DNA of 64,000 nt. Origin: an uncultured delta proteobacterium (GTDB lineage Bacteria; Myxococcota_A; Polyangia; Haliangiales; Haliangiaceae). Both the position numbers and the translations under genes were made by a program. The notes under the pieces are model-generated. The model saw nothing but the letters and a program-made list of their open reading frames with translations. It did not search any database and was not told the DNA's origin. The stretch lies in NCBI GenBank assembly GCA_963848295.1, contig CAWKDB010000004.1, positions 224,001 through 288,000 on the forward strand. Reading direction: 5' to 3'. Numbering within the stretch: position 1 is the first letter of the stretch; each line of letters begins with the position of its first letter. Of this stretch, positions 9,677 to 43,370 are shown one piece after another.

Positions 9677-10030
9677 GTGGACGCCGATACCGCCGAACAC
9701 CTGCTCGATGGCTTGCCGCTCGTTCCCGTGATCGCCGGATCGATCGCGGACATGAAGGCGTTACGCGAGCGCTGCTTGGCCGCCGACATCCCCGCGCTCG
9801 TCGGTTGCCCACCGGGCGCCGGAAAAGGTTGAGGGACCAAGACGCACCTCCTGGTCGAGGAGGACGAGCTGCCGAGGGTCGCCGAGCTGCTGCGCGGTGA
9901 CTGGCGCGAGATGCTTCAGCGTGAAGGCGCCGCGCCAGTCGATCTCGACGCGTCGAAGTGCCCGGCCTGCGGCTGTGGCTCGCCGCTGGTCGCCGGCGCG
10001 TGCGCCGACTGCGGGCTGCAGCTCGAATAA
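9677..10030 (+). CDS. Putative selenoprotein (C-x7-U) with C-terminal zinc ribbon
   Basis: GTG 9677; ...LVGCPPGAGKG-TGA(9830-9832)-GTKTHLLVEEDELPRVAELLRGDW...CPACG...CADCGLQLE-TAA, all in one frame; SECIS-like hairpin follows. Confidence 0.75.
9843..9866 (+). promoter_or_regulatory. Putative bacterial SECIS element
   Basis: CCTCCT-GGTCG-AGGAGG perfect 6-bp stem; loop starts 20 nt after TGA and begins with GG. Confidence 0.65.
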
Positions 10031-10050
10031 CTAGTGGACGCAACAAACCG

Positions 10051-11787
10051 CTAGAAGTCGCTGCGGGAGTCGCTGCAGTTGTCCAACCGACCTTCGGCCG
10101 GCGCGCCGGCCATCTGATCGAAGCCCTCGCATCGATCGCCGTTGACCCCGCTGTATGCGAACGGGTCGCACGGGAAGACGCAGTCGAGCTCGCCGGTGGC
10201 TGCCGTCTTCGAGGCGGTGAATCCCGAGCACGGCTCGCCGGTCTTGCCCGGGAGGTATCGCTCCTCCACCGGTCGAATCGGGCAAACGCGGTCCTTCGGC
10301 GGCACGGCACACAGCAGCTGGTCGCCGAGGCATCGACACACCTGTGCTATGCGGGTCTTGCACATCGACTGGCTCCCGTGTCGGTAGACGTCGGTCGGCA
10401 CACAGATGCAGTATTTCTTTTCGGCCCGGTGAGGCTTCGCGACCGGTCTCACCGCCCCGGCATCGGTCACGCCAGCGGGTCGCGCGACGACCGGATCGCG
10501 ATCGTTGGCGGGGGGCGATGCGTCGCTCGACGATCGAACAGCGACCGCCGCGTCGACGACCGTGGGCGCCGACCGAGCGTTAGTCGCGGCCGCGTCGACG
10601 ACCGTGACCATCGACCGAGGGTCAGTCGCCGCCGCGTCGACGATCGGCACCGCGCTCGACCGCATCGCCCGCATCGCGACGAACCCGCCGATGACGCCGG
10701 CCGCGATCACGACGGGTGCGATCCAGAGCCATCGTCGGCGCGCTCGGCCGACCCGGGCCGTCGAATCGATCGCGGGCGGCCCGGGTCTGCGCTCGGATCG
10801 CGTCGGCGCGGCATCGCGCGACTGCGGCGGCGGCGCTCCGCCATGATCGCCGTCGAGCGCATCGGCGAACTCGAGCGCATCACGAAACCGAGCATCCGGA
10901 GACTTCGCGAGCGCGCGCTCCACCGCGGCGACGAGCCGAGGCGGCAACCCGGGGCGCACCACGTCGAGCGAAGGCGGGGCCTGGTTGAGATGCAGCTCGG
11001 CGACCGAGCGGGTCGAGCCGGCGAACGGCGCGTCGCCGACGAGCATCGCGAACAGCGTGAGGCCAGCGGCGTAGAGATCGGATCGCCGATCGGCCGCGCC
11101 ACCGACGAGCTGCTCGGGCGCCATGAACTGCGGCGTCCCGACAATCGCGCCCGTCCCGGTGAGCGTCTCCGCGACGTGCAGGGACTTCGAGATCCCGAAG
11201 TCCATGATCTTGACGTAGTCGCGATCGCCGCCGCGCGTCGTGAGCAAGACGTTGCTCGGCTTGATATCGCGATGGATGATCCCCGCCTCGTGGATCGCGT
11301 GGAGGCCGAGCAGCATCTGGCGGCCGATCGCCGTCGCGCGGGTGGCATCGAGCGGCCCGGCACCGACAAGCTCTTGCCGGAGATCGCGACCGTCGAGGTA
11401 CTCCATCACGATGAAGTCACGCCCCGCGTCGCTGCCGATGTCGAAGATCTGGACGACGTGATCGTGGATCACGCGGCTCGCCGCGCGCGCCTCGAGCCGG
11501 AACCGCGCCGAGGCGTCGCGATCGCCATTGCCGTACGACAGGAACTTGATCGCGACCCGCTTGTCGAGCCCGACGTGATCGGCTTCGTACACCGCGCCCA
11601 TACCGCCGCGACCGAGCAACCTACGCACGAAGTACCGCCCGTCGAGCGTCTGGCCGAGCAGCGGATCGTGATCGCCCGTGGTGTCTTCCACGATCGCGCC
11701 GCCGTCGACAGAGCAGAACCTCTCCGCGCCGGTGTACACCGCGTGGCACACCACGCAGCGCCGTCTCGCGGGCTCGGCCGAGGCCAT
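10051..11787 (-). CDS. Ser/Thr protein kinase with TM helix and Cys-rich extracellular domain
   Basis: N-terminal CxxC..C motif, LGRGGMG, HRDIKPSN, DFG, GTPQFMAPE. Confidence 0.92.
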   Translation of the reverse strand: MASAEPARRRCVVCHAVYTGAERFCSVDGGAIVEDTTGDHDPLLGQTLDGRYFVRRLLGRGGMGAVYEADHVGLDKRVAIKFLSYGNGDRDASARFRLEARAASRVIHDHVVQIFDIGSDAGRDFIVMEYLDGRDLRQELVGAGPLDATRATAIGRQMLLGLHAIHEAGIIHRDIKPSNVLLTTRGGDRDYVKIMDFGISKSLHVAETLTGTGAIVGTPQFMAPEQLVGGAADRRSDLYAAGLTLFAMLVGDAPFAGSTRSVAELHLNQAPPSLDVVRPGLPPRLVAAVERALAKSPDARFRDALEFADALDGDHGGAPPPQSRDAAPTRSERRPGPPAIDSTARVGRARRRWLWIAPVVIAAGVIGGFVAMRAMRSSAVPIVDAAATDPRSMVTVVDAAATNARSAPTVVDAAVAVRSSSDASPPANDRDPVVARPAGVTDAGAVRPVAKPHRAEKKYCICVPTDVYRHGSQSMCKTRIAQVCRCLGDQLLCAVPPKDRVCPIRPVEERYLPGKTGEPCSGFTASKTAATGELDCVFPCDPFAYSGVNGDRCEGFDQMAGAPAEGRLDNCSDSRSDF

Positions 11788-11863
11788 CCGGCGATGTTAC
11801 TGCGACCTGCGACGCGATGCGCGGATTCTGCGACCGTGTCAGACCTGTGAGCGAAGCTGCGGC

Positions 11864-12343
11864 ATGACCGTAACCGTCGAATCAGTGGACGAGACCTCCG
11901 ATCCGCGACGCTGGAAGAAAGCCGGCTGGATCGCGAAGATCGTCAAGAACGAGAACGACGAAGGCTGGGCGGCCGAGATGACGCGGGTCGGTGACTCCGA
12001 GCCCTCGCTGGTCAGCCCGTGGACGATGGGTCGCAACAAGGTGAATCCAAAGCCGCTCGATGCGTCCGGGTTTGCGACGCTCGTCAAGGGCGCGACCGAA
12101 GTGATGACGCGCCACGCGCACGCCGCGCGGGCTCGGCTGCATCGCTCGATCAACTGCCTGAGCGAGGCCGGCGCCCGCCTCCGCGCCGACTTCGACATCC
12201 AAGAAGACGAAGACGATCCGCATGCGATCCTGACCATCGTCGACGAGCTGAGCGGCGAGACGCTGCGCACCGGGCGAGCGAGTACCGGGTTCAAGCTTGG
12301 CGAAAAAGCGGTGCAGCGGTTCTTGAAGACCGGCGACGCGTAG
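11864..12343 (+). CDS. Conserved hypothetical protein
   Basis: Coding-like composition; motif PWTMGRNKVNPKPLD. Confidence 0.7.
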   Translation: MTVTVESVDETSDPRRWKKAGWIAKIVKNENDEGWAAEMTRVGDSEPSLVSPWTMGRNKVNPKPLDASGFATLVKGATEVMTRHAHAARARLHRSINCLSEAGARLRADFDIQEDEDDPHAILTIVDELSGETLRTGRASTGFKLGEKAVQRFLKTGDA

Positions 12344-12399
12344 ATCGATGTCCGAATGTATTGGCACGTGACCGGCCAAATGTTCGTTACGACCCCAGC

Positions 12400-12994
12400 A
12401 TGGCATTGCAATCGGGGTGGCTGGCTGGCGTCGCGCTGTGTGCGGCGTGTGGATCGTCTGGCGGTGGCGGCGGACCGGGGACCGTCGATGCACCGAACCG
12501 CGCGGCGAACGCCGACGCGAACGGCCGCGGAGGTGATAGCGGTAGCGGCAATGCCGGCGGCGACGCGAGCATGCAGGTCATGTCCACGCTGACGTCGCCG
12601 TGTGCGACGTTGCAGGGCCGCGCGATCGTCAACTACAACGACAACCTCGGGATCATGTTCACCGAGCATGACTCGCCCTACACGTTCTTGGGCTCGGTCC
12701 AGTTCCAGCTTCCGGACGGCTTCACCGGCGTCCGTGCCCGATCCCGAGATCTATAACGGCACAGACGATCGCCACATCGCCGCGATGACCGACGCCGGCT
12801 TCGATCTGCACGGCAACCACTGCTGGGCCGGCGAGCAACCGCCGGCGGGCTCGCTGGTCATCGACGAGTATGATCCCAGCGACGGCGTCGTGAAGGCGAC
12901 GTTCAGCAACTACGCGCTGCACAGCTGTACCGATAGCTCGGTCTGCACCGTGAGCGGTTCGATCGAGACGACCGGCCAAGGCGTGTTCGAGTAG
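12400..12994 (+). CDS. Hypothetical lipoprotein (frameshift near 12730)
   Basis: MALQSGWLAGVALCAAC lipobox, Gly-rich linker; continues as SVPDPEIY...QGVFE* in another frame. Confidence 0.7.
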
Positions 12995-13001
12995 GAGCCC
13001 G

Positions 13002-13656
13002 TTAGCCGGCGAGGATGCCCGCGTCCGTCCAACGCAGCACCATGTCGGCGGCGCGATTGAAGGCGTCGTCGCCGGTGAAGTAGCCCGCGAGCTCCGCGAC
13101 CGACGTGCCGCGCTTGACCGCGCGCAACGCCGCGCCTTCGGTCAGGCCCGCGGCGTACGCGTAGACCGCCGGTTGATCATCGCGCCACATCAGGACGGTG
13201 CGTGGCCAATCGAGCACGCGCGGCTGAATCGGCGGCTCACCGCGGCCGAGTGCGGTCCACGCATCATCGACCGTGGTCGTGAGCTGGAGCAGCGCGCTCG
13301 CGGGCACGAGTCGGAGCGGGCGATCGGCGGTGAGCTCGGCACGCAAGAGGCGCGCGGCCGCCGGCGCGTACCAGACCTCGGCGTGTGCTCGATCGAGCCG
13401 CGCGAGCTCGCCGTACCAGGCCGGATAGTCCGAACCCGCGACCAGAAACTCGACGAGCTGGCCGCCGCGTTCGCGCGAGGTCCGAGACTTCGTTCGGCCC
13501 GCGCGCGATGTACGTCCCCATCAGCGCTTCGAACAGGTCGGCTCCGAGCGCTAGCGCGAGCTTCGGATAGTGGACGCCCACCGCGACCGCGAGCCAGTCG
13601 CGACCATCGTGCGGGGCACGGCTACCGCGCGCGAGCGGTCGACTCGAGGCCATCAT
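13002..13656 (-). CDS. DUF2063/HvfC-like protein (frameshift near 13470)
   Basis: HYPKLALALGADLFEALMGTYI and YGELARLDRA resemble the DUF2063 N-domain; C-domain LRLVPA...VLMWR. Confidence 0.55.
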
Positions 13657-13692
13657 GTCGCTAGTACGAGCGACCCGGCGATCCGGTTACGG

Positions 13693-15071
13693 CTAGCGGC
13701 GTGCGGTCACGACGATCGGCATGCCGCCCGACGGTGCAAGCGTGATGCCGCGGCGAACGAGGCGAATCCGTTCACCGCCGGCCGAGGCGAGCTCGACGCG
13801 CGCGAGGATCGTCGCGAGCACGATCTTCATCTCGTAGCTCGCGAACGCCATCCCGAGGCAGCGCCGGACCCCGCCACCGAACGGGAAGTACGTCGCCGGG
13901 TCCGCTTTCTTGCCGACGAACCGCCCCGGATCGAACCGCCCGGGCTCGGGCCACAGGTCGGCGCGCCGGTGCACGAGATAGATCGAGGCCAGCGCGATCG
14001 CTCCGCCGGGGAGCTCGATGCCGCCGATCGTCGCGGGGCGCTTGAGCACGCGGCCGACCATCGGGATGATCGGGGTGAGCCGCAGCGTCTCCTTGATCGC
14101 GGCGTCGAGCAGGACGAGCCGCTCGATGTGCTCGGGTTGCACCGGGCCCGGTCCCGACGACCTCGCGGACCTCGGCGCGCACGCGGTCGAGCCACTCGCG
14201 GTGCTCGAGCAAGTGATGGATCGTCCACGCGAGCGTCGTCGCGGTCGTCTCGTGACCGGCGAGCAGCAGCGTCAGCATCTCGTCGCGCAGCTGATCGTCG
14301 GTCATCGCGGCACCGGCCTCGTCGCGCGCCTCGAGCAGCATCGACAGGATGTCCGTCGCGGCCGGCGCTGCCTTCGCGCCGCCGCGCCGCGATCAGCTCG
14401 CGCACGAGCCGATCGGTCTCGGTCTGGGCGCGGACCAGCGGCGCCCACGGCAAGAATCGTCCGAACCACCCGGTCGCGAGCTCGCGGACGGCGTCGGCGC
14501 GATCGGGCGGGGTCAAGAGCAACAGCGCGGTGCCGAGCGGCGAGGTGCCGAGGTTCGTCCAGCGGACGAGCGCGTCGCGCAGTGGCGCGAGGTGCGGATC
14601 GTCGGCGCCGACGCCGAACACGGTGCGCATGATGACGTCGAGCGTGATCGTCTGAGTCGACGCGTGGAACGGGAACGGCCGGCCGATCGGCCAGCGGTCG
14701 ATCTCGCGCGAGGTCGCGTCGCGCATCGCTTCGCCGTATGCGCGCATGCGGTCGCCATGAAACGGCGGCAGCATCAGCCGTCGCTCGCGCAAGTGACGGT
14801 CGCCATCGAGCACGAGCAGCGAGTGTTTGCCGACGACCGAGCGCAGGATCAGATTTGCTTCGCCGGCGTGCAGCGTGTCGGGATCGCCGGTCCACAGGTC
14901 GCGGACCGCGACCGGCTCGGCGAACACTACGATCGGGGTCGCGATTCGCGGCAGCCGCAGCGTGAACACGTTGCCGTAGCGCGCCGCCATGTCGTCGAGA
15001 AACGGCAGCGGCGTGCGCAGCCAGCGCACCATGTTGACGATCGGTCTCGACGCTGGGCCTGCCGGTAACAT
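13693..15071 (-). CDS. Cytochrome P450 (frameshifts near 14352 and 14145)
   Basis: I-helix LLAGHETT, KETLR (ExxR), FDPGRF, heme motif FGGGVRRCLG, spread over three frames. Confidence 0.9.
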
Positions 15072-15089
15072 GGTTCGAGCTTAGGCGAT

Positions 15090-17132
15090 CTACAGCGCGA
15101 TCGGGATCGGGACGGTCGACGTCGCGCGGCCGACGCCGTCGGTGAACAGATCCGTGTTCGCGAAGCACACCACCGTGCCGGCGCCGGTCAACGCGCACGT
15201 CGGCGTCGCCGCGGTGAATGCGCGCGCGTTATCGTAGGCGTGCGGGATCGTCGGCGGCTCCATCCGATCGGCGCTCGTGCAGGTCGTGCCGGTCGCGCCG
15301 CGCGCGCACACCATGAAGGCGCTCGTGAACAGCGAGTGCGTCACCTTGGCGAGCTCGGTCGTGGTCGCGACCGGCTTGCCGTCCTTGGTCTCGAGCGCGA
15401 TCTCGACAGCTCGACCATCGCCGAGGCGGGCGACCAGCTTCGCGCTCGCGTCGGTCTCTGCGAACTGCGGACCGCTGCCTGCGATCTCGACCGCGTCGGT
15501 CACGACTACCACTTGCGCGCTCTTGGTCTTCGAGTCTTCGGTCCAGCACCGCACCGGGCCCGCGACGTGATCGAGGACGCACACCCACGAACCTGCGATC
15601 ACGACGGACGCCGCGTGCTCGGCGGTCTTGATCGGCGTCGGCGTCTTCGCCGCGGACGGACCGAGCAATGGATCGCCGACGTGGAGCAGCGTGCCGTCAG
15701 CGGTGCGCGCGAGCAGGCCGAAGTCGGTGGCGGCGAGCTCGCGGATGTCGTGCAGGCCGGGAAGATCGGTCGGTTTGTCGGGGCCGAGCGTCGGCACCGA
15801 GTCGTGCCCCCAGCACGCGACCGTGCCGGCCCGGCGCAGCACGCACGCGTGAAAATGGCCCGCCACGATGCGGGTCGCGTCGGTGACGTCGCTGAACGTG
15901 ATCGGGACCGCGGTCTGAATCGCGAGGCTGCTGCCCGCGTCGCCGTGCCCCCAGTACGCGAGCTGGCCGTTCGCGCGCAGCGCGACGACGCCGTAGGTCC
16001 ACGCGACAAGATCGATCGCGTCGTCGAGGCCCCACGCCGGCGTCGTGTTGACGCCCTCGGCGACGCCGCGGCCGAGTTGGCCGCGCTCGTCGTTACCCCA
16101 GCACGCGACCGCGCCGCCGCGGTACAGCGCACACGCGTGGTTCATGCCGTGGCTGATCTGCGTCACGCCGTCGAGCGCGACGGTGAGCGCTGGGTCGGGT
16201 GGAAACGCGCACGTGACCGAGGTTGCGGTCTGCGAACAGGTCGGAGTGACCGGGTCGGCTGGCGTGACCTTGAAATCGGCGTCGATCGCGAAGCACCTCG
16301 AGATTCGATCGATCCCGCGGGCACAAAACGAGTCCGCGTCGGCCGATACGACCTCGGCGATGTGCTCGAACACGACGTGCGGAGCGCCGAGCCAGAGCTT
16401 CGGCTTCGTGCCGACCGGCGCGAGGTATCGATCGACGGGCGTGCGCGGGTCGGTCGGGCTCTGTTCGGCTTGGAGATAGACGTCGATGCACTCGAGCTTG
16501 TCGGCGACGATCGAGCACGCGTAGGAGACATCCGGGAACTGCCAGTCGGCGCCCACCAGGCTGCCCATGATGAGCGAGGTCGCGTGATGAATGCGTGTGC
16601 GCGTCACCGAGGGCCCGTTGACTCGACACGCGACGTCACCGGACTTGTCCAGCACGCACAGCGCCTCACCTGAGGCCGCGAGATCGATCCCCGCGGTTAC
16701 GCCGGCGATCGGGTGCGGCTCGAGTGTAGCGACGCCGGCCTCGAGCTTCGGCTTCGACTCCGCGCACTCGACCCGGCCGTCGCGATGAAGTGCACACAGG
16801 TCGTCGTCGGTCATCGCGAGCTTTGCGATATCGGTCCACCCTGCGATCCGGTGCGGACTCCCGAAGTCGCTGCCCCAGCACGTCACCGCTCCACTCTTGA
16901 GGACCGCGCACGTCGCCGCGTTCGAGCTGATCAGCGACAGCGCCGGGTCGCTCGGCCGTGGCAGCGGCTTCGGGCCCGGCAGCGGTTCGAGCGCAACGCC
17001 CGGCTTCGCGAGCGGCGCGATGACGGATTTGGGCGTTGGCGCCGCGCCGGTCGGGTCGGACCTTGGTGCGGTGCCGCCGCCACCGCAGGTCGCGAGTAAG
17101 GCCAGCGTCGCAACGAGCCCGAAGCGGGGCAT
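15090..17132 (-). CDS. RCC1-like repeat lipoprotein
   Basis: Signal ending LATC; repeats HACAL..G.V.CWG.D..GQLG. Confidence 0.8.
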   Translation of the reverse strand: MPRFGLVATLALLATCGGGGTAPRSDPTGAAPTPKSVIAPLAKPGVALEPLPGPKPLPRPSDPALSLISSNAATCAVLKSGAVTCWGSDFGSPHRIAGWTDIAKLAMTDDDLCALHRDGRVECAESKPKLEAGVATLEPHPIAGVTAGIDLAASGEALCVLDKSGDVACRVNGPSVTRTRIHHATSLIMGSLVGADWQFPDVSYACSIVADKLECIDVYLQAEQSPTDPRTPVDRYLAPVGTKPKLWLGAPHVVFEHIAEVVSADADSFCARGIDRISRCFAIDADFKVTPADPVTPTCSQTATSVTCAFPPDPALTVALDGVTQISHGMNHACALYRGGAVACWGNDERGQLGRGVAEGVNTTPAWGLDDAIDLVAWTYGVVALRANGQLAYWGHGDAGSSLAIQTAVPITFSDVTDATRIVAGHFHACVLRRAGTVACWGHDSVPTLGPDKPTDLPGLHDIRELAATDFGLLARTADGTLLHVGDPLLGPSAAKTPTPIKTAEHAASVVIAGSWVCVLDHVAGPVRCWTEDSKTKSAQVVVVTDAVEIAGSGPQFAETDASAKLVARLGDGRAVEIALETKDGKPVATTTELAKVTHSLFTSAFMVCARGATGTTCTSADRMEPPTIPHAYDNARAFTAATPTCALTGAGTVVCFANTDLFTDGVGRATSTVPIPIAL

Positions 17133-17144
17133 CGAGCGCAGGCC

Positions 17145-17247
17145 GCAAGTTGACAAAAGAGACAGCGTCCCCAGAGAATACATTCAGTTTCGAGACCTTA
17201 CCGAGGCGGCTGCGCTAGCAAGTTGACAATAGAGACACCGTCCCCAG
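17145..17247. repeat. Two imperfect 30-bp direct repeats separated by 43 bp
   Basis: gcaagttgacaaaagagacagcgtccccag (17145-17174) and gcaagttgacaatagagacaccgtccccag (17218-17247), 28/30 identical. Confidence 0.85.
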
Positions 17248-18670
17248 CGTCATAGAGCTTGATGTAGCGCGAGGCGTAGAGGGTTGGCAGGTGGAGCTCG
17301 CGCGGCGGATCGCGGTGGAGGTTGACGATGACGCGGACGACGGCGTCGGCGGGGCGCACTGACTGCGCGAAGTCGGTCGCGAGCACGACGGTGAGGTTCG
17401 GTGGGATCGCGAAGTCGAAGTAGAAGTTCGTGATCGAGGTGCAGCGCGGCTCGCCACAGACCAAGATGACGCGGCGGTGGAGGTCGAGGACTTCGTGGCG
17501 GAGCTCGGCATACGCGGCCGCTTCGGGGTGACCGCGCCGGAGCTGGGTCATGACGGCGCGCACGTACGGCACGACGAGCAGCGCGACGACCGCGATGGCG
17601 ACGCCGAGCTTCGCGCGCATGGTCGGCCAGCGTTCGAGCGCGTTGTCGGTCGCGATCGCAGCGACCACGAGGATCGGTGGCAGGGCCTGGAGGGCCATGC
17701 GTTGCGAGATCGGCAACGGCGCGTACGCGGTGAGGCTGCTCGAGCCGAACCAGAACAGGCCGATCGTCGAGGCGGCGGCAACGACCCACAGTCGATCGCG
17801 ACCGCGCACGAGCCACGGCGACAGCGCGACCGGGATCAACGCGATCGAGAACATCGTGATGAACATCTGGAGCGGCTCGTAGGTGAGCCGGGCCAGCCAC
17901 GCCGATGCCGGCTTGCCGATCAGCGACCACGTGTGCTCGGTCGTCAGATCGTCGATGCCGTGAAACCGCGCGAGTGGGTCGCCCCAGACGCGGGCGCAGA
18001 TCACGAGGTAGGCCGCGGCAAGCACGACACCGAACGCGAGCGCCGCACCGTAGGTACGGGCGGTCGCTCGGGCGCCGTGGTCGAGGGCGTCGCGCACGAT
18101 CGCGTAGATCCACACGGGCGCGAGCCAGATCGCCGATTCCTTGACGAGGAACGCGGCGAACCACGCGCCGACGGCCGCGACGAGCCAGGACGCGCCGCGT
18201 GGGCGATCGCGCCGCGAGAGCCACAGCAGCGACGCCGCCATCAACGTCGCGCACGGGAGATCACAGCCGAGCACGGTCGCGAGGTGGAGGAGCGGCGTGC
18301 ACACGATGCACAAGGTCAAACCGATCAGCTTCGCGCGCGGCGTCGGTGCGGCGGCATAGACCACGAGCAGCACGCCGAGCCCGGCGAGCAAGACCGGCAG
18401 GTCGCTGACAAACCGCGAGACGCCGAACAGCTTGTAGAACAACGCGAGTGGCAGCGTCAGGCCGACTCGCATCAAGAACGGATGCGTCGCCGGCGCCGCG
18501 AACACGCGGCCCGGGTCGATGGCGATGTCGTGCGCGACCTTCGCGTACCACAGGGGGTCGGCGACCACCATGTCGTTCTGGCCGATGACGAGCACCGCCG
18601 CTTCGACCACGAGTGCGAGCGCGAGCGCGATCCACGGACGCTCGACGAGCACGCGGATGGCAGCGGACAT
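17198..18670 (-). CDS. GT-C fold glycosyltransferase (ArnT/PMT, GT39/83-like)
   Basis: DPLWY after first TM, many TM helices, LVKES motif. Confidence 0.8.
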   Translation of the reverse strand: MSAAIRVLVERPWIALALALVVEAAVLVIGQNDMVVADPLWYAKVAHDIAIDPGRVFAAPATHPFLMRVGLTLPLALFYKLFGVSRFVSDLPVLLAGLGVLLVVYAAAPTPRAKLIGLTLCIVCTPLLHLATVLGCDLPCATLMAASLLWLSRRDRPRGASWLVAAVGAWFAAFLVKESAIWLAPVWIYAIVRDALDHGARATARTYGAALAFGVVLAAAYLVICARVWGDPLARFHGIDDLTTEHTWSLIGKPASAWLARLTYEPLQMFITMFSIALIPVALSPWLVRGRDRLWVVAAASTIGLFWFGSSSLTAYAPLPISQRMALQALPPILVVAAIATDNALERWPTMRAKLGVAIAVVALLVVPYVRAVMTQLRRGHPEAAAYAELRHEVLDLHRRVILVCGEPRCTSITNFYFDFAIPPNLTVVLATDFAQSVRPADAVVRVIVNLHRDPPRELHLPTLYASRYIKLYDAGDGVSIVNLLAQPPR

Positions 18671-19542: not shown

Positions 19543-19588
19543 TGGCACGGACTATTTGATGACCGCCACGATCGGGCGAGCTATCGAC

Positions 19589-34329: not shown

Positions 34330-35259
34330 GTGATGGCCAAACGTCGCGCGCCGCCCAAGTCGGATCTCGATCTCAACTTGCTGGTGATCCTCGAGGCGTT
34401 ACTCGCAGAGAAGAGCGTGACGCGAGCGGCAGACCGGGTCGGATTGACGCAATCCGCGGCGAGCCACGCGCTCACGCGGTTGCGCGACCACTTCGACGAT
34501 CCGCTGTTGGTCCGCGCGCGCGGCGGGATGGCACTGACGGCGCGCGCCCAAGAGCTGGCTGTGCCCGTGCGCGATGCGCTGGCCACGCTCGATGCCGCGC
34601 TGCGAGGTCCGGGCCCGTTCGAGCCGGCTCGCGCTCGCCGCAGGTTCGCGATCGCGATGACCGACTACTTGGGCGTCGTCTTGCTGCCGCCGCTATACGC
34701 GCGTCTCGCGCGAGAGGCCCCGCAGGTCGATCTCGCGATCACGTCGGTGGTGCGCAGCGTCGAGGACACGCTCGGCGCCGAATCGATCGATCTCGTCGTC
34801 ACGATGGCGCCGCTGGCGGATGAACACCCCGACCTCTACCAGCAGCGACTGTTCGAAGAGCGCTACGTCTGTGTCATGCGACGCGATCATCCGGCCGCCG
34901 CGCGTACGCTCACGGTGGACGCCTACTGCGCGCTCGATCACGTGCTGATCGCGCCACGCGGCGGCCGCGGCATCGTCGATCGCGAGCTCGCCACACGCGG
35001 GCTCGCCCGTCGCGTCGCGGTCCAGGTTCCGCACTGGCTGGTCGCGCCACACTTGGTGGCGTGCAGCGACCTCGTCCTGACGGTCGCCGAGCGGCTCGCA
35101 CGGACCTACGCTCCACTACTGCCGCTTCGCATCGTCGAGCTGCCGATCGAGCTGGCCGCGATCTCGTGCTGGCAGCGCTGGCATGCGCGCAGCCACTCGG
35201 ACCCGGGCCACGCATGGCTCCGCGGGCTGGTCGCCGACGTCGCTACTTCGCGGGTTTGA
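34330..35259 (+). CDS. LysR family transcriptional regulator (NodD-like)
   Basis: DLNLLVILEALL..SVTRAA..GLTQSAASHALTRLR; DPGHAWLR. Confidence 0.95.
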   Translation: MMAKRRAPPKSDLDLNLLVILEALLAEKSVTRAADRVGLTQSAASHALTRLRDHFDDPLLVRARGGMALTARAQELAVPVRDALATLDAALRGPGPFEPARARRRFAIAMTDYLGVVLLPPLYARLAREAPQVDLAITSVVRSVEDTLGAESIDLVVTMAPLADEHPDLYQQRLFEERYVCVMRRDHPAAARTLTVDAYCALDHVLIAPRGGRGIVDRELATRGLARRVAVQVPHWLVAPHLVACSDLVLTVAERLARTYAPLLPLRIVELPIELAAISCWQRWHARSHSDPGHAWLRGLVADVATSRV

Positions 35260-35680
35260 AATCGAAGCCGTTCGGCATGTAGACGAAGACCACGCACGGC
35301 GCCTCCGGCTCGCAGTAGTTGTCGTGCACCTGGTTCGCGACCTGGTGCCAGCGCTCGCCGGTAGCGAGCGCGGGGCCGGTGTCGCTTCCCTGGAAATTGT
35401 GCATGCGGCCCTCGAGGATGACGGCGTAGTCGTCCGAGCTGTGCGTGTGAGGACCGGGCTTGAACCCGGGCGGCGTCTTGAACAGGAACCCGATCGGCGC
35501 CTTCTTGTCGAGCGCACCGAACACGACCGAGACCTGTGGCCCCTTCGCGCCAGCCTTGGCATCGAGAGGGATCCACACGGCCTGCTTGGCGGTCGTGGTC
35601 GACGAGTGATCGGCGCGGGCGGTTGCGGCGGTGGCGAGCGAGCCGGCGAGTGCCAGAGTGATTAGCGTGAGACGAGACAT
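35243..35680 (-). CDS. Secreted cupin (DUF4437-like)
   Basis: Signal peptide; PHTHSSDDYAVILEG, VHDNYC. Confidence 0.8.
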   Translation of the reverse strand: MSRLTLITLALAGSLATAATARADHSSTTTAKQAVWIPLDAKAGAKGPQVSVVFGALDKKAPIGFLFKTPPGFKPGPHTHSSDDYAVILEGRMHNFQGSDTGPALATGERWHQVANQVHDNYCEPEAPCVVFVYMPNGFDFKPAK

Positions 35681-35920
35681 GACGTGCTCCTGGTTCTTGG
35701 TGGGTCTTGGTGATTCTCACCGTGCGCTCGCCTGGCCATCGCGTCGAGATGACGGGGTGCATGACGAGGATGCACGCCGTGCATGGGCCTCCTCGTCGAG
35801 CTGCAGCGCCAGCCGGCCCGATGACGCCTGAAGCTGGAGTCAGCGCCGACTCGACTCGGGCGGCTCGTTCTCGGGCGCCACGACTTCGTATCCACGCGCT
35901 GCGATCATACGATTGAGGAC

Positions 35921-38548
35921 GTGAAGTCGGGCGATACGCTGGCGGACGACGACACCGCACGGCCCGGTGCGGCCACGATCCCGGCGGGTGGAGTGCGTTC
36001 GCCTGTGGTCGAGCTGCAGACTGTCGATCCGGTGGTCTACCAGCGGCTCCACGAGATCGCCCGCGGTGGGATGGGGCGGATCACCGTGGCGATCGATCGC
36101 CGCCACGGTCGCTCCGTCGCGATCAAGGAAACGCTCGGCGACGGTGACACCACGCGCTTCGAGCGCGAGGCGTTAGTCACCGCGCGCCTCCAGCACCCGG
36201 CGATCGTCCCGGTCTACGAGGCGGGGCGGTGGCCAGACGGGACACCGTTCTACGCGATGAAGATGGTCGCCGGACGCCCGTTGGACAAGGCGATCGCAGA
36301 GGCGGCGACGCTCGAAGCGCGCTTAGCTTTGCTCACGCACGTGCTCGCCGCGTGCGAAGCGCTCGCGTATGCGCACGACCAGCGGATCATCCATCGCGAT
36401 CTCAAGCCGTCGAACGTCCTCGTCGGGAGTTTCGGCGAGACCGTCGTGATCGATTGGGGGCTCGCGAAAGTCTTGGGGACGGCGGACGCGGTCGGCGTCT
36501 CGAGCTCGACGCCCAGTGGCGAGATGACGGTCGCGGGCGACGTGCTCGGCACACCGCAGTACATGCCGCCCGAACAAGCGAGCGGCCAAGAGGTCGACGA
36601 ACGCGCCGACGTCTACGCGCTCGGCGCGATGCTCTACCACGTGCTCGCGGGCGCGCCTCCGTATGAAGCCGCGCCGGTCCACGTCATGGTCGCCTCCGTG
36701 ATCGACGGGCCGCCGCTACCGCTCGAGCGCCGCGCGCCCGAGATTCCGCACGACGTGCTCGCGATCGTCGCCAAGGCGATGTCCCGCACGCCGGAGGCGC
36801 GCTATCGCGATGCACGCGACCTGGTCGATGACTTGCGCCGGTTCCAGACCGGGCAGCTCGTCCGCGCGCATACCTATACGCTGCGCGAGCGAATCACGCG
36901 CTTCGTGCGGAGAAACCGCGCGGCGACCGCGATCGCGGCGGCGGCGGCAGTCGCGCTCGGCATCGGTACCGCGATCGCCGTCCACCAAGTGGTCGACGAG
37001 AAGAACGTGGCGGTCACGCAAGCGGAGCGCGCCGACGCCGAAGGCGGCGATGCTGATCTCCTCGCGACGCAAACGCTCGCGGAAGCAAGCACCGCGCTCG
37101 ACCGCCTCGGCCACATCGATCTGCTGGAGTCGATGGCGCGGCGCACGGTGGAGCACTACGAGCGCATCGAGCGAGGAGGGCGGCTCACGGATCGTCGGGC
37201 CGTCGCATATGCGCTCGCACTCGAGGCATTGTCGCGCTCCGAGGTCAAGGTTGGACGCGTCGCCCAGGCGACCAAGCTGCTCGATCACGCCCGGCATGTG
37301 CTCGCAAGAGAAACGTCGGGCGCGCCCGGCCTCGACGCGATGCGCGCGACCGCGAGCGTGGCGCTGCATCAGAGTGCGCTCGACCGCGCGACCGGCGACA
37401 CGCAGGCGGTGATCGCCCACGCCGGTGAGGCTCGCGACTGGGCGACGCGGGCGTTGGCTGTCGATGCCCGCGACCCTCTCGCGGCGCAGACGTTGGCGGC
37501 CGCGTTGATGACGATCGCGAATCGCGACCGCGCGGCCGACGACCTGGCGAACGCGCGCAGCAACTACGAGCGCGCGAAGACCTTGCTCGACGCGCAGGGC
37601 GGGGATCGCGATGCCGCGATCCTGGGCGCGCAGCTCGACTGCGAGCTCGGCTATCTCGAGCAAGGCTTGGGGCACCTCGATCTTGCGAGCGCGCGGTTCG
37701 AAGCGGCGATCGACAAGACCAGGGCGGTGCTCGTCGCGGCCGCGACCTCGCCTGACTTGGGAGCGCTCGAGTGGCAGGTCGAAGCGGATAACGGGCTCGC
37801 CGGGCTCGCGAGGCTGCGCGGGCAGCTGGCGGAGGCCGCGCGACGCAGCGCCGACGCGATCGACGGCTCCGCTCGGCTCACGGCGGCCGATCCCGACAAC
37901 AAGGTGTTTGCGTCAGAGCTGGCGTTGGCGCGCACCGAATCCGCGGAGATCGCGATCGCTTCGCACTCGCCGGACTCGGCCGCGGCCGAGCTCGAACAAG
38001 CGCGTGCCCAAGCGCACCGCCTGACCGAAGACGAGCCCGACAACCGCCTGTGGTGGCGCGATTCTCGCTCACATCGAGCGCGTACGCGGCGACCTCGCCG
38101 GCGAGCATCACCAACTCGCGGCGGAGCTCGACGCATACGTCGCGAGCAGCGAGGCCGCCCAGCACGCGCTCCGCGGCGAGCACGATCCCCTCGATCTGCA
38201 TCAGCTCGTCTGGGCGCTCGAGCTCCAGGGCGAGGTGCTCGAGGAGCTGAATCGGCGCGACGATGCGATCGCTCGCTACGCCGACGAGCTGAGGACCGCG
38301 ACCGAGCTCGTCGCGACCGGGCGTGAAGGCAAGTCCTGGCTCTCGGATCTAGCCGACGCGGAGCAGCACCTCGGCGCAGCCCGGTTGCGACGCGGGGACG
38401 CGGACGCGAGGTCGATGCTCGAGCGGGCCGCGCAACACCAGCGCGAGCTCGTCGCCGCGCACCCCGACGATGCGAGCGCGCGCGAGGATCTCCAGGACAC
38501 GGAGCGACTACTCGGGACGGGCGGCGGCACGGCACTCACCGCCCGTGA
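35921..38548 (+). CDS. Ser/Thr protein kinase with TM helix and TPR-like C-terminus (frameshift near 38062; end approximate)
   Basis: IARGGMG, HRDLKPSN, DWGLAK, GTPQYMPPE; continues as LAHIERVRGDL...LQDTERLLG in another frame. Confidence 0.85.
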
Positions 38549-38561
38549 GCCTCGCGGAGAC

Positions 38562-39884
38562 TTACGACGTGCGCTTCGGAGCGGCCTGGACCGCCGCCGG
38601 CGGTGCGGTGGTGCGCGATGGGGGCGCCGCCATCATCGCTTGCGCGGCGCGCCGGTTGTCGGCCGGGGTCGGCGAGTCGTTGCGCGTGATCACCTGCGCG
38701 GCGAGCAGCGTCTGCACGACGCGCAGCACGTCGTCCGAGCCCGACGCGACCGCGCCGTGACCGTTGCCGCCGCTCGAGCCGAAGTTGACGAACTGACCGT
38801 TCGAGAGCGCCGCTGCGACCTCGCGGGTCAGCGACGGCGCGAGCTCGAGCCGTCGCAGATCCATGTAGGCCTCGCCGGCTTCGACCAGCGCTTGCGCCTT
38901 GAGCCGGATCGCGCCGGCTTCGGCCTCGGCCACCGCACGGATGCGCGCCGCTTGAGCGCGGCCGTCGGCCTCCTGGGCGATCACGTTCTGTTCGGCATCC
39001 GCGCGCGCCTGCGTGATCTGGTTGGCGGCGAGCTCGCCCTCGCGCTGCTTGCGCACCATCGCCTGCTTCTCGGCCTCGGCGTTCGCGATCGCTGCACCGT
39101 TCGACGCGATCTGCATGTGCAGCGCGCGCTCCTGGTCGTTGATCTTCTGCTCCGCCTCGAGCTGGGCGATCCTCGCGCGCTGCTCCTCCTGCGCCTGCAC
39201 GACATCGGCGCTGGCCTTCGCACGTGCCGCCGACTCGCGCCGCCGCGCATCGGCGACCTCGCTGAGCACGGCCTTGATGTTGAGGCTGTTGAACGACAGA
39301 CCGAGATCGAGCAGCTCGCGCGAGCACGCGTCCTTGATGATCACCGCGAGCTCGTCGTCCTCGCCACGCTTCGCCAACGCCTCGGCGGTAAGCCCGGTCA
39401 CGGGCGCGCTTCCGCTGCGCGCGTTGAACAGCTGGTCGTGCCACAACAGGTTGATCGCGCGTCGCCCCGCCGACGACAGCACGTCGGTCAGCGTCGACAT
39501 CTGCTCGCCCGAGGACTTGGAGAAGAACTTGTTGGCGGCGGTGTTCACCATCGCCTCGTCCTCGCCCACGCTGACGATCGCCGACGCGCGCACCGTCACC
39601 TTGACCGGCGCTGGGCGCGCTTCGGCGTCGACGTCTGCGGTCTGATCGGTGATCTCGATGTCGACGTTGATCGCCTGCGCGGGAATCCGCCGGACCTGCG
39701 TGATCACCGGTACGATCATCGCCTTGCACGGCCCGCGGTAGATGCGGAGGCCGCGGCCGCGGCTCGCGAGCAGGATCTCGCCGGCATCGACGCTGCGCAG
39801 GAACGTGGTGACGATGATCGACGTCAGTACGAGAACTGCGACGACGGCGGCCCCGGCGATGATGAGCGACATCTGGACTGGCAT
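38562..39884 (-). CDS. Flotillin/SPFH family protein
   Basis: N-terminal TM, SPFH domain, AEA-rich coiled coil. Confidence 0.85.
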   Translation of the reverse strand: MPVQMSLIIAGAAVVAVLVLTSIIVTTFLRSVDAGEILLASRGRGLRIYRGPCKAMIVPVITQVRRIPAQAINVDIEITDQTADVDAEARPAPVKVTVRASAIVSVGEDEAMVNTAANKFFSKSSGEQMSTLTDVLSSAGRRAINLLWHDQLFNARSGSAPVTGLTAEALAKRGEDDELAVIIKDACSRELLDLGLSFNSLNIKAVLSEVADARRRESAARAKASADVVQAQEEQRARIAQLEAEQKINDQERALHMQIASNGAAIANAEAEKQAMVRKQREGELAANQITQARADAEQNVIAQEADGRAQAARIRAVAEAEAGAIRLKAQALVEAGEAYMDLRRLELAPSLTREVAAALSNGQFVNFGSSGGNGHGAVASGSDDVLRVVQTLLAAQVITRNDSPTPADNRRAAQAMMAAPPSRTTAPPAAVQAAPKRTS

Positions 39885-40549
39885 GGCGAGCTCCTAGGCG
39901 TCACGGACGCCCGGGCACACTCTACCCCTCCGGAACCGGAAACGGTTACCCGTTCACGCGCGGGATCGACGTCCTCGACGCGGAGGCTGTCGCCGACTCT
40001 CACGTCGAGGTGCGCCTGTGCATCGATCAACCGGGCCGAGAATTGCACGAGCCGGCCATCGCGCACGACCGAGACCACGCCGCGGCCGTTGCGAAACCCG
40101 GTCACCGCGGTGGCGTCCGACATCACGATCGTTTCGAGTGGCGCGCTCGGATGGCCCTGGAACCGGAACAGCAGCCGCCACACCGGCGTCACCGCGAAGC
40201 GCTCGACGATCGCCGCCGGAACGATCGCGACGAGGCCGGCCCACAGCGGCGCGAGGTGCACCGCGAGCAGCACGTTGCCGAATGCGCCGTACAGCGCGAG
40301 CAAGCTGAACACGAGCCGCGGCGACGGCAGAAAGCGCGTCATTCCAGTCGGCGTCGCGTGGACCAGGGCACCCTGCGCAGCGGCGGTGCCGCGGACCGGT
40401 ACGAGCGCGGCGGCAGCGCGAACGGGTGCGAGCGTGGCCGCGTGACCCGCGTGCAACGCGCTCCGCCCGACATTCGCGTGGCGACCGAGCGCCGGCAACG
40501 CCATCGCCGCGAGCGCGGCCAGCCCGACGACCATGAGCGTGAGGAACAT
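39824..40549 (-). CDS. NfeD-like membrane protein (flotillin partner); true end probably near 39920
   Basis: TM helices followed by OB-fold pattern GVVSVVRDGRLVQFSA...VGDSLRVEDVD; directly upstream of flotillin. Confidence 0.65.
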   Translation of the reverse strand: MFLTLMVVGLAALAAMALPALGRHANVGRSALHAGHAATLAPVRAAAALVPVRGTAAAQGALVHATPTGMTRFLPSPRLVFSLLALYGAFGNVLLAVHLAPLWAGLVAIVPAAIVERFAVTPVWRLLFRFQGHPSAPLETIVMSDATAVTGFRNGRGVVSVVRDGRLVQFSARLIDAQAHLDVRVGDSLRVEDVDPARERVTVSGSGGVECARASVTPRSSPCQSRCRSSSPGPPSSQFSY

Positions 40550-40627
40550 CCAGCCAAAAGCGTGCGCCTCGGCACCGCCCGCGTCAACAGGGGCCCGTGA
40601 GCGCGACCACTCGGGTAAGTTCCCGGC

Positions 40628-41704
40628 ATGTCGATCACGGACGAAGCGGCCCGCGCGCTGGCAGGCGTCGATGATGTCGACTGGGCATCGTTGCATCACC
40701 CCTATGGCCCGGCCGACGATGTCGCTGGCCATCTGCGCGGCTTTCTTTGCGCTCCGGACACCGATGACGCGATCGAAGCCGCCACGTTTTTCGGATCGCG
40801 CTTCGTGTGTCAAGGCATAGACTTCGGCTCCGCTGCGCCCCATGCCGTGCCGTTCATGCTGCGCTTGCTGGCTGCGCCCGGTGTGTCCGGGCGTGGGCCG
40901 GTGATGGGCGCGATCCTGACGATGCTGCGGATCGCGGTGCGCAGAACGCCACGGGACATGGAACCCGCGCTGCAGCTTGCCTGGCTCGATGCGATGGGGC
41001 GGCACGCCGACGAGATCGTGGCGGTCGCCAACTTCCTCGACGGCAAAGGCTTCGAGGAAGCGATCGAGGTTCTGGTGGTCGCGTTCGCCGACTCGATCGC
41101 ACCGCTGACGGCGCGCGCGCCCCGAACCGTGCGCGAGATCGTGGCGCGGATTCCCGATCTCGATGTCCCGCACACGCCGGGCGATCGGATCGTCGCCTGG
41201 ATGACGCCGCGATGGGACGACGTGTTCAACTGCCTAGTCGATATCGAAGCGCACGTCCCCGATGAATACCTCCCATCCGAGGGCGGCGATGACGACGATG
41301 GCGAGGACGTCGAGGAATCACAACCCGTCGAGACCGAGGCCGAGGTCGAATCCCGGAATCGTGCCGCTTGTGCACGTACACCGATCGTCGGCGCGCTCGC
41401 ACGCGATCGCGCTGCGTTGACGGAGCTGTATCTCGCCTATCTACGGGTCGAATGCGACGTCGTCGTCACCGTCCAGGACGACCAACGCCTGAACGTCAAG
41501 GCGCCGGCGTTCGTGGATGAACGCAAGCTGTTCGGCAGCGTCGCGCTGCGGACGCTCCTATCATCGCCGCCGCCCGAGCTTCCCATCGATGGCTCGATCG
41601 AATGCGACGAGGCCGGCAGCTGGCTTGCACTCCTGGTCGAGAGGGACGCAGAATTCGAGAGCTTTCTCGAGTCCTGCGCGTTTGTCCTGGAGGCGGCCGG
41701 CTGA
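40628..41704 (+). CDS. Hypothetical protein (helical N-domain VDWASLHHPYG)
   Basis: Long ORF with coding-like composition; TAAGTT-N6-ATG. Confidence 0.65.
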   Translation: MSITDEAARALAGVDDVDWASLHHPYGPADDVAGHLRGFLCAPDTDDAIEAATFFGSRFVCQGIDFGSAAPHAVPFMLRLLAAPGVSGRGPVMGAILTMLRIAVRRTPRDMEPALQLAWLDAMGRHADEIVAVANFLDGKGFEEAIEVLVVAFADSIAPLTARAPRTVREIVARIPDLDVPHTPGDRIVAWMTPRWDDVFNCLVDIEAHVPDEYLPSEGGDDDDGEDVEESQPVETEAEVESRNRAACARTPIVGALARDRAALTELYLAYLRVECDVVVTVQDDQRLNVKAPAFVDERKLFGSVALRTLLSSPPPELPIDGSIECDEAGSWLALLVERDAEFESFLESCAFVLEAAG

Positions 41705-41800
41705 CTGTTCGCGCGTTGCGCCCGCTACGAAGACATGAATCATGGTCGTCCGTGAAAGCTTGCTGGCCGCGGCGTCGCGTCGCTACGTTATCATCGCACG

Positions 41801-42880
41801 GTGATCAGTCCTGTGGCGGTCGCTTGTGGCGTTGTTAGTGCGATTGCACTTCCGGCGTGCGGTCGCGTCGACTTCGAGCCGTCCGGCGTCGGCTGGTGGA
41901 ACGACGCATGGCCGTACCGCGAGTCCCTCACGATCGATCATCGGCAGGTCGCAGGCGATGTGACCGATTTTCCCGTTCTGGTCATATTCGATGACGCGTC
42001 ACTCGGCGCACACGCAACGCCTGATGGGCACGATCTCGCATTCGTCGACGATGCTGGCGACGAGCTTCCGTACGAGCGCGAGAGCTACAGCGCGGTGCCG
42101 CCGAGCGCGGTCGTCTGGGTCCAGTTGCCCGCGGTCTCGGCCGAGCTGGACACCACGTTCGACGTCTACTACGGGAACGCCGCCGCGCCCGAGCAGGCGC
42201 AGCCACGAGCGGTCTGGAGCAACGCGTACGTCGGCGTTTACCACTTCGGCGACGGCACAACCCTCGACGTTCACGACTCGACCGGGAACAACGACGGAAC
42301 CGCGAACGGCGCGGTCGCAGCGCCGGACGCGATCGTCGGCGGTGGCCTCGCGCTAACGGGCGGGCCGGTCGTGACCGCGCCGACCGCAGGCGTAGACGGC
42401 GTGCCGAATGGTCTGAACACGGTCACGTTGTGGGTCGACTACGAAGGCCCGATCGGCAAAGCTCCCGTCGGCTTCGTGGTTGGCCCCGAGGTCTACGACG
42501 TTTGGTATGAGGCGCTCGACTGCGTGGGCTTCAACACGCAACAGGGCGACGTGCTCGGAACGACCGACGATCTGACGGGTCGCTGGCTGTACCTCGCGAT
42601 GGTGTTCTCCAACGGTGTGCCGACGGCGACTGCAAATGAGCTCTACGTCGACGGCCAACCCGAGACGCTCGCGGCATGTGGCACCGGTAGCCCCCTGAGC
42701 TACTCGGTTGGTGGGATCGTCGACTGGGGCGGGGATCCCGGCTTCGAGATGACCGGCACGCTCGACGAGGCCCGCATCGCGACCGGAGCGCGGAGCCCGG
42801 CGTGGATTGCGACCGAGTATGCGAATCAGCATGCCCCCGAGGCGTTCGTCGTGGCGGGCGCCGAGGAGGAACGGCCGTAG
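41801..42880 (+). CDS. DUF2341 + LamG lipoprotein
   Basis: ACGRVDF; WW..AWPYR, DFPVLV, DLAFVD, YYGN; GTLDEARI..ARS.AWI.TEY.NQ. Confidence 0.85.
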   Translation: MISPVAVACGVVSAIALPACGRVDFEPSGVGWWNDAWPYRESLTIDHRQVAGDVTDFPVLVIFDDASLGAHATPDGHDLAFVDDAGDELPYERESYSAVPPSAVVWVQLPAVSAELDTTFDVYYGNAAAPEQAQPRAVWSNAYVGVYHFGDGTTLDVHDSTGNNDGTANGAVAAPDAIVGGGLALTGGPVVTAPTAGVDGVPNGLNTVTLWVDYEGPIGKAPVGFVVGPEVYDVWYEALDCVGFNTQQGDVLGTTDDLTGRWLYLAMVFSNGVPTATANELYVDGQPETLAACGTGSPLSYSVGGIVDWGGDPGFEMTGTLDEARIATGARSPAWIATEYANQHAPEAFVVAGAEEERP

Positions 42881-42992
42881 ATCGCGCGCAGACGCGCGCC
42901 TCGGGCGCGGCACCGAAGGTCGCACGAGCTCGCGCCACGCGCTCCCGCGGTAGCCTTCTCGGACTTCGCATGGATGCGCGTACACTCGCACG

Positions 42993-43370
42993 ATGGCTCA
43001 GCCCACCGTCACGATCTTCCACAACCCTGGTTGAAGCACCTCCGTCTACGCCACGGCGGTCGCCGAGGAAGCCGGAGTGTCTTATCGCGCGGTCCAGTAT
43101 GCGAAGAAGGCAGAGCGCCCGGATCGAGCCACGCTCGAAAACCTGGTCGCGATCATCGAGGATCCCGTCGAGGATCTCGTGCGCAAGGACTCGCTGTTCA
43201 AGAAGCTCGGCCTCGATCCGGCCGACTACGTGAGCAAGCCGCGCGCGGTCGTCGACATCCTGGAGAAGTACCCGGCGCTGCTCCAGCGCCCGGTGATCGT
43301 GCGCGGCAAGAAAGCGATCATCGGCCGCCCGCGCGAGCGTGTGCCCGTGTTTCTGAAGTCCAAGCCCTGA
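42993..43370 (+). CDS. arsC: ArsC/Spx family reductase, selenocysteine-containing
   Basis: MAQPTVTIFHNPG-TGA(43032-43034)-STS aligns with ArsC HNPxCSxS; LVRK, YPALLQRPVIV, AIIGRP. Confidence 0.85.
43037..43079 (+). promoter_or_regulatory. Putative bacterial SECIS element
   Basis: CC-a-CGGC-GGTC-GCCG-a-GG upper stem, CTCCG/CGGAG lower stem; loop 23 nt after TGA. Confidence 0.7.

Follow-up and report, generated by a model that had tools for sequence, protein, structure and literature searches.

Two in-frame TGA codons with probable, ordinary bacterial SECIS hairpins in a myxobacterial genome, and a candidate lipoprotein selenoprotein elsewhere in it

Introduction

How are two in-frame TGA codons read that lie inside two non-homologous genes in a 64,000-nucleotide stretch of an uncultured delta proteobacterium (contig CAWKDB010000004.1 of assembly GCA_963848295.1, positions 224,001 to 288,000; the whole stretch is hereafter the window), and do the hairpins that follow them, both with a loop beginning GGUC, constitute a signal of their own? 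In bacteria, SelB binds the loop of the selenocysteine insertion sequence (SECIS) and delivers selenocysteinyl-tRNA (Sec-tRNA) to the UGA. An earlier note on this DNA had read both codons as selenocysteine (Sec) codons in a selenoprotein-rich myxobacterium, and had taken a shared GGUC(G) loop as the defining feature of their SECIS elements and as a means of finding others. The analysis reported here indicates, with a probability of about 0.93, that both hairpins are canonical bacterial SECIS elements and that both genes are read through as selenoproteins. The SECIS architecture of the two sites is already known, Sec insertion being a prediction from sequence, and the ordinary elements of the window matter less than a lipoprotein gene found elsewhere in the genome.

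The source genome (G000, with contigs C2 and C10 referred to below) comprises 7.78 Mb and is 85% complete; L numbers denote extracted loci. Comparisons within the family used a set of 138 genomes, and the tallies and alignment A3 include the unpublished genomes G037 and G038, on which no claim rests. Database relatives carry the names Kofleriaceae or Myxococcales, with which the guess of a myxobacterium agrees.

The two TGA codons and their hairpins

The positions first given for both TGA codons, GGTC loops and stems proved exact on re-reading of the letters, and RNAfold places both loops where they had been described. At site 1 (TGA 9830-9832, plus strand), GGTC begins 20 nt later at 9853, and the hairpin (9847-9863) has a 6-bp stem, formed by CCTCCT (9847-9852) and AGGAGG (9858-9863), and the loop GGUCG. 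At site 2 (TGA 43032-43034, plus strand), GGTC follows after 23 nt (43058-43061), and the hairpin (43051-43068) has a 4-bp upper stem, formed by CGGC (43054-43057) and GCCG (43062-43065), two further C-G pairs beyond an A.A mismatch, and a GGUC tetraloop.

In the bSECISearch model, as set out in the legend to Fig. 2 of a 2026 review, bacterial SECIS elements have a loop of 3-9 nt on an upper stem of 4-16 bp, a G within the first two nucleotides of the loop (usually G[G/U]), a UGA-to-loop distance of 16-37 nt and a minimum free energy of at most -7.5 kcal/mol (PMC13188914). Both window hairpins agree with this description on all four counts: gene 1 has a 6-bp stem under a 5-nt loop and gene 2 a 4(+2)-bp stem under a 4-nt loop, at spacings of 20 and 23 nt and with energies of -10.2 and -8.7 kcal/mol, respectively. 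They also agree in a further respect: the in-frame UGA is conserved, homologues have Cys there, and selA, selB, selC and selD are all present in the genome. As in the bacterial consensus, each hairpin lies in the coding region soon after the UGA. The SECIS loop of E. coli fdhF contains G23/U24 (PMC8659212). By contrast with that element, the window stems need no bulged U17 and have no conserved lower stem, and the loop GU falls not at nt 23-24 but at 25-26 in gene 1 and at 28-29 in gene 2.

The machinery for Sec insertion is encoded in the genome. The genes selA, selB and selD all score over their profile cut-offs, and tRNA-Sec scores 67 bits against a cut-off of 47. SelB is full length, with residues 5-622 aligning to the SelB of PDB 5lzb, and selB is found in 121/138 family genomes. 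In the proposed mechanism, this SelB would recognise a loop that contains G, some 20 nt beyond the UGA, and bring Sec-tRNA to the codon.

The zinc-ribbon protein encoded by gene 1

Gene 1 (9677-10030, plus strand) encodes a predicted selenoprotein of 117 amino acids when the TGA is read as Sec (Sec52, context GKG-U-GTK). Two CxxC pairs (residues 95-112, codons 9959-10012) form a zinc ribbon that is made only on read-through, because its codons lie downstream of the TGA; its cysteines C95, C98, C109 and C112 are invariant in 36 aligned orthologues. The gene is matched in 123/138 family genomes, with a TGA within the match in 112 of these 123, and the Sec column holds Cys in 115/120 database homologues.

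At the DNA level, 59 of the 112 TGA-bearing loci were examined. A hairpin with at least 5/6 stem pairs and a loop GU is present in 59/59 Sec orthologues versus 2/11 Cys orthologues, and this, together with agreement with the consensus, upholds the identification of the hairpins as SECIS elements. In the same 59 loci the loop is GGUCG (32), GGUCC (14), GGUUC (9) or CGUCG (4), and 27 of them have 7 bp and a GUY triloop. Codon choice is restricted within the hairpin: the Leu codon at +6 is CTC in 59/59 (genome usage 53%), and the Val codon at +8 is never GTG (genome usage 36%). Of the alignment cells, 91.7% are paired, a value reached by 0/500 shuffles.

The only model matched by gene 1 is NCBIfam NF049953, the zinc ribbon-containing (seleno)protein DG, with a score of 45.5 bits (cut-off 130); likewise, at E <= 0.001 each of the 36 aligned orthologues matches this model alone (best E 4.8e-20). 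DG was predicted in 2025 as a hypothetical protein of deep-Sep (PMC12013277), and its motif is given as GUxG in Table 1 of the 2026 review (PMC13188914). Gene 1 resembles DG in its C-terminal zinc ribbon with two CxxC and in its Sec/Cys pairs, but differs in its score, in lacking profile positions 1-52, in its motif GUGT, and in its occurrence, DG being found in Desulfosediminicola and gene 1 in Kofleriaceae. By these sequence features gene 1 is placed as a distant homologue of DG and not a member, that is, as a putative new distant branch, which extends this recently described family to myxobacteria. The predicted model (pLDDT, the predicted local distance difference test score, 91.9) consists of a small alpha/beta N-terminal domain, with Sec52 in a loop between two strands, followed by the zinc ribbon; a fold search with this model gave no Foldseek match at E <= 0.001 and no clear fold match (best Z 7.8). 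Homology and model together suggest that Sec52 likely sits on a flexible loop beside the zinc ribbon, as part of a metal-binding or redox-sensing site.

The ArsC-family protein encoded by gene 2

Gene 2 (42993-43370, plus strand) encodes a predicted selenoprotein of 125 amino acids with the context HNPG-U-STS (UxxS). It scores 44 bits against Pfam ArsC (PF03960; gathering score 24), and 77.2 bits against the arsC equivalog TIGR00014, under the cut-off of 106.05. In alignments with solved arsenate reductases (3rdw, 2mu0), its Sec14 falls on the HNPxC cysteine, and arginines 64, 99 and 111 coincide with the catalytic arginines of the solved ArsC proteins. Sec14 likely replaces the ArsC catalytic cysteine as nucleophile, by homology in arsenate or thiol redox chemistry. 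In the upstream gene, the only neighbour scanned, no ars-operon gene was recognised.

Selenoproteins of the UxxS arsenate reductase type were reported in 2005, first from the Sargasso Sea (PMC1088965). Gene 2 is like them in having UxxS at the catalytic cysteine and a PF03960 match above the gathering score; it is unlike them in falling below the TIGR00014 cut-off and in the restriction of close orthologues to 11/138 family genomes. It is thus assigned, from sequence features, to a selenoprotein family known since 2005. The 11 orthologues (E <= 6e-32) all carry the TGA and the GGUC loop, and 14 weaker matches have no TGA listed inside the matched stretch. One of the weaker matches (L057, G064:C182, near 2235, minus strand) is an ArsC/Spx-like gene with the context LYWKST-U-TSC, in which a TGA stands at the first cysteine; its hairpin loop is GAGU, and a similar gene in G036 carries Cys.

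Several observations weigh against reading the two hairpins as SECIS elements. The 56-nt hairpin regions are not unusually stable relative to shuffles (z -0.11 and -1.20). Covariation in the gene-1 hairpin is thin, with two-sided change in 6 cells and a score of 0.081. The Cys orthologues of gene 1 differ from the Sec orthologues in protein sequence too, so the contrast between 59/59 and 2/11 is not a pure RNA effect, and kin are not independent in these counts. For gene 2, covariation lies within the range of the shuffles (56, 93 and 68 of 500; 9 distinct rows). An Rfam scan of the window gave nothing at gathering score. On the preferred reading, in which both hairpins are SECIS elements, two genes truncated by gene callers become full-length predicted selenoproteins, and their annotation is corrected.

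Other candidate selenoproteins and the GGUC loop

Other Sec genes of the genome were sought by a read-through scan independent of SECIS, in which 200 TGA candidates were reduced by inspection to five Sec genes (gene 1, gene 2, and genes for a rhodanese, an AhpC/TSA protein and a SelW/Rdx protein), and by a SECIS-guided scan (57 candidates), which added an AhpD/CMD protein and the lipoprotein discussed below. The total of seven comes from a non-exhaustive scan of the incomplete genome. Outside it stand candidates judged at most by eye (C10:505946, 1113068, 978437, 3122205, 4055516, 2379983 and 2429885, and C2:4581), as well as the TGA at C10:2152111, for which no family match was found. For the rhodanese, AhpC, SelW and CMD genes, family matches were found in Pfam/NCBIfam searches.

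All four of these genes lie on the minus strand. The rhodanese-like predicted selenoprotein (L104, C2:299164-299568, TGA C2:299280) has a 7-bp stem with a GGUC loop, and its TGA is kept in relatives; its protein has an N-terminal lipoprotein-like signal and the CxxxU-xxC context FYCHNES-U-HAC. The AhpC/TSA-type WUxxC predicted selenoprotein (L105, C10:806376-807356, TGA C10:807164; GGC loop) is supported by PF00578 spanning the TGA and by the WUxxC context, and was recovered among the matches listed in a paralogue-based Cys/TGA screen; its C-terminal fusion partner, a domain of about 170 amino acids, has no Pfam match. The SelW/Rdx CxxU protein (L106, C10:4466303-4466527, TGA C10:4466497) has a CGGGC loop, with the TGA present in 61/61 genus matches and loops of the form CGGGY or CGUGU. 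The AhpD/CMD-like CFYUT protein (L107, C10:2996230-2997234, TGA C10:2996967) has an 8-bp stem with a GUU loop at 17 nt, and its TGA is found in 25/27 matches; this gene lies about 20 kb from selB.

The possibility that the lineage's SelB reads a dedicated GGUC(G)-loop class of SECIS by sequence, usable as a genome-wide finder, is unlikely, and is largely refuted as a general rule. In its favour, GGUC occurs at 3/7 candidate Sec genes against a background of 0.16%, is invariant in the 11/11 ArsC orthologues, and is found in 17 of 25 rhodanese loci, the closest ones, and, as GGUCU, in 3/4 Sec-FDH loci of relatives, the fourth having AGUUU at the same place; GGUCU agrees with the G23/U24 described for the E. 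coli fdhF loop (PMC8659212). Against it, only one of the five genes not used to define the pattern has GGUC (the rhodanese), the other four having GGC (AhpC and lipoprotein), CGGGC (SelW) or GUU (CMD). Variation within families points the same way: GGUC is absent from 13/59 gene-1 orthologues and occurs in 0/25 SelW loci, 7/25 rhodanese loci have CGGGC, and the lipoprotein loops are GGU (31), GGG (12) or GGC (6) in 49 loci. The CGGGC rhodanese loci represent a second Sec-bearing rhodanese group in relatives. A residual form of the idea would be that SelB holds GGUC loops more firmly, so that these genes take precedence when selenium is limiting.

The background frequency of the pattern leads to the same result. 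A strict pattern (a GGTC loop with 4 or more Watson-Crick pairs, located 17-27 nt past the codon) follows 251/157,006 TGA triplets genome-wide (0.16%), and is as common at the control codons TGG (278/167,825, 0.17%) and TGC (467/287,512, 0.16%) and after true TGA stops (4/2,818, 0.14%). A looser GGTC-hairpin scan likewise had matches after 1.56% of TGAs overall and after 1.65% of true TGA stops, without enrichment among read-through-like codons (TGA 1.83% vs TAG 2.31%). True Sec sites account for 3/251 strict matches; the pattern is strongly enriched at Sec sites (3/7 candidate genes) yet not diagnostic by itself. Within the window, the 3 strict matches among 1,324 TGAs are the two sites and one at 46294 (plus strand), which lies on the strand opposite a long open reading frame (45789-47123) and is taken as a chance match.

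Several expectations of the earlier note thus fall away: GGUC(G) neither defines the shared loop nor serves to find selenoprotein genes in the genome, and the pattern is about as frequent after true stops and control codons as after TGAs in general. Two of the genes it had named as controls (fdh and selD) were unusable in this genome, which has a SelD of the Cys form and in which the search for a Sec-FDH gave none, and seven candidates in 7.78 Mb hardly make it selenoprotein-rich beside the 57 and 63 selenoproteins of the top two BSepDB genomes (PMC13326102). What the seven candidate Sec genes have in common is geometry and not the word GGUC: a stem of 4-8 bp, and a loop of 3-5 nt that starts 17-23 nt past the UGA (17-21 nt, with stems of 7-8 bp, in the five genes other than gene 1 and gene 2) and has G[G/U] in its first positions. 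SelB would accordingly be expected to tolerate several G[G/U] loops, the loop word being partly set by the codons beneath; GGUC would be one loop that fits where the codons beneath encode Leu-Val or Ala-Val. With loops GGUC, GGUCG, GGC, CGGGC and GUU served by one SelB, the seven natural variants offer a ready panel for studying loop specificity.

A lipoprotein with a conserved TGA codon

The lipoprotein gene (G000:C10:180531-181058, plus strand, TGA C10:180678; L108:1032-1559 and L119:1501-2028) encodes 175 amino acids on read-through, with a signal-like N-terminus, an invariant Cys19 and then the motif EPxP[F/Y]-U-APG. It is probably an uncatalogued, near-universal selenoprotein of Kofleriaceae: an exported protein of about 175 amino acids, forming a stand-alone jelly roll with a lone Sec50 in a motif-free loop, usually without a partner cysteine, and encoded by a gene that is split in annotations. 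It is matched in 114/138 family genomes, with one TGA inside each of 121/121 matches, and no other Sec gene tested is retained as widely in this family. Five genomes that have Cys in gene 1 (G058, G048, G110, G086 and G023) keep the lipoprotein TGA. In a phylum-wide sample the gene occurs in 8/401 genomes, all with the TGA and all with selA or selB. Tandem copies are present in G101 and G055.

The hairpin (nt 15-31, counted from the T of the TGA) was studied at the DNA level in 49 of the 121 loci, a sample outside which the divergent copy L159 (28% identity) stands, and in alignment A2, which leaves out L142 (3-nt insertion) and L159. In the 48 distinct rows, pairing is present in 93.8% of cells and both sides have changed in 37 (0/500 shuffles), and one stem pair shows all four Watson-Crick types (GC 16, CG 13, UA 8, AU 7); at another stem pair, two genomes from other families show a change from C-G to U-A. 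The commonest loop, GGU, places G23 and U24 at the same numbers as in the E. coli minimal SECIS if both are counted from the U of the UGA, which we take to be the convention for the latter.

The predicted model is a jelly roll (pLDDT 91.7; predicted template modelling score, pTM, 0.84) resembling the C-terminal domain of CocE/NonD and X-prolyl dipeptidyl peptidase hydrolases (PDB 8yzn, 6nff, 4pf1). It aligns to 8yzn_A with Z 13.8 (root-mean-square deviation 2.8 A over 145 residues, 8% identity), beyond the next rows at Z 10.9 and 10.4; this alignment covers residues 24-175 and runs through the TGA, so that sequence before and after the codon is needed for the fold. Unlike that C-terminal domain, to which identity is 8-12%, the domain of the lipoprotein stands alone behind a lipoprotein signal, does not follow a hydrolase domain and has a predicted Sec. 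The model suggests a fold shared with the CocE/PepX C-terminal domain, with no Pfam sequence match, and a shared fold shows no function.

The lipoprotein of G000 has no Pfam or NCBIfam match at E <= 0.01, and among 43 members the best NCBIfam E value is 0.043, so that no catalogued family model is matched. Nor does it match the models cited for hypothetical families in a 119-row table of the 2026 review (PMC13188914). A literature search that included this review, with the BSepDB supplement and web tables and the deep-Sep figures outside its scope, found no description of the protein among the entries listed. The selenoproteins SaoB and SaoX of the Sao ABC-transport system, listed in Table 1 of the review, provide a precedent for Sec in substrate-binding proteins that are not thioredoxin-like (PMC13188914), but the lipoprotein does not match their NCBIfam models, and a different fold class is expected. 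A gene for a S-adenosylmethionine (SAM)-methyltransferase lies directly upstream in 30/37 loci, overlapping the lipoprotein start in G000, and an MFS transporter gene converges downstream in 21/37; the conserved neighbourhood showed no ABC transporter.

An alternative holds that the TGA is a true stop after a lipopeptide of about 49 amino acids and that a second gene, for about 122 amino acids, starts at a GTG four codons later. The databases do hold the two pieces separately (46-67 amino acids, ending at profile position 49, and about 122 amino acids), and the GTG at +4 is present in 38/49 loci. However, it is missing in 11/49, no ATG, GTG or TTG occurs within ten codons in 10/49, and codons +1 to +3 stay Ala-Pro-Gly in 47-48/49 loci while varying synonymously. 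The TGA also has no redox motif around it, and two of the four full-length homologues that run through the site have Ser (P0246) or Gln (P0247); nevertheless, all four are continuous across it, and the other two (P0348 and P0361; hhalign probability 98%) have Cys. A further point on the side of a true stop, and against Sec insertion, is that 12/114 carrier genomes have no selB match at E <= 1e-60, the other 102 having one; these 12 are all draft assemblies, and in the six of them that were checked further, selA (3 genomes) or tRNA-Sec (3 genomes) is present. With a covarying hairpin and a predicted fold that aligns across the TGA, the two-gene explanation is distinctly improbable.

Some copies and homologues differ at or near the site. 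In the divergent copies L158 (G054:C44) and L159 (G060:C297), TGA and hairpin are retained and there is an additional cysteine 11 residues upstream, which the Cys-type homologues P0348 and P0361 also carry; a Se-S or S-S bond is possible in the L158/L159 branch, judging by these residues. A fifth homologue, P0022, looks frameshifted at the site. In G110, a 77%-complete genome in which selA and selB were not found, tRNA-Sec (C25:18100-18195) lies 14 kb from the lipoprotein gene (C25:32031-32531).

If the lipoprotein is a selenoprotein, its Sec50 would be a surface ligand for metal or selenium. Alternatively, Ser and Gln being tolerated in homologues, the TGA would let selenium decide whether a short lipopeptide or the complete folded protein is made. 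According to the 2026 review, most selenoproteins are thiol-oxidoreductase-like or have a redox motif (PMC13188914). The lipoprotein is unlike these, being exported, with a carbohydrate-binding-type fold, no redox motif and a TGA in every match, and as a selenoprotein it would directly test a role of Sec outside redox catalysis. It may also explain why the Sec machinery is retained in a genome with a Cys-type SelD and no Sec-FDH.

Sequencing errors and minor observations

The explanation of the window TGAs as sequencing errors or pseudogene nonsense mutations, with the hairpins a by-product of GC-rich codons, has next to no probability: although the assembly does hold frameshifted genes and at least one Trp-to-TGA case, and about 2 chance GGUC hairpins are expected per 64 kb, sequencing error is excluded because both TGAs recur in other genomes (111 in the case of gene 1, 10 in that of gene 2), and the TGA sits on a conserved Cys column, with synonymous codon choice fixed beneath the stem. 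The reading of both TGAs as Sec codons and not errors is thus sustained by their conservation in relatives, Cys in homologues and the full Sec machinery.

Two other TGA codons of the genome were dismissed as Sec codons. The TGA at C2:656851 (plus strand), considered as a Sec-FDH site, lies in a molybdopterin oxidoreductase gene with several frameshifts (C2:656-659 kb). The TGA at C10:997702 (minus strand), in a gene that is presumably Uma2-like, aligns to Trp in two paralogues and is followed by no hairpin, and serves as a negative control. Both loci are pseudogenes or assembly errors. Within the window, a single open reading frame of 748 amino acids (6267-8513, plus strand) appears to join an esterase/depolymerase-like lipoprotein to an iron-sulfur-cluster protein via non-coding-looking sequence, and, judged by eye, is probably an indel artefact.

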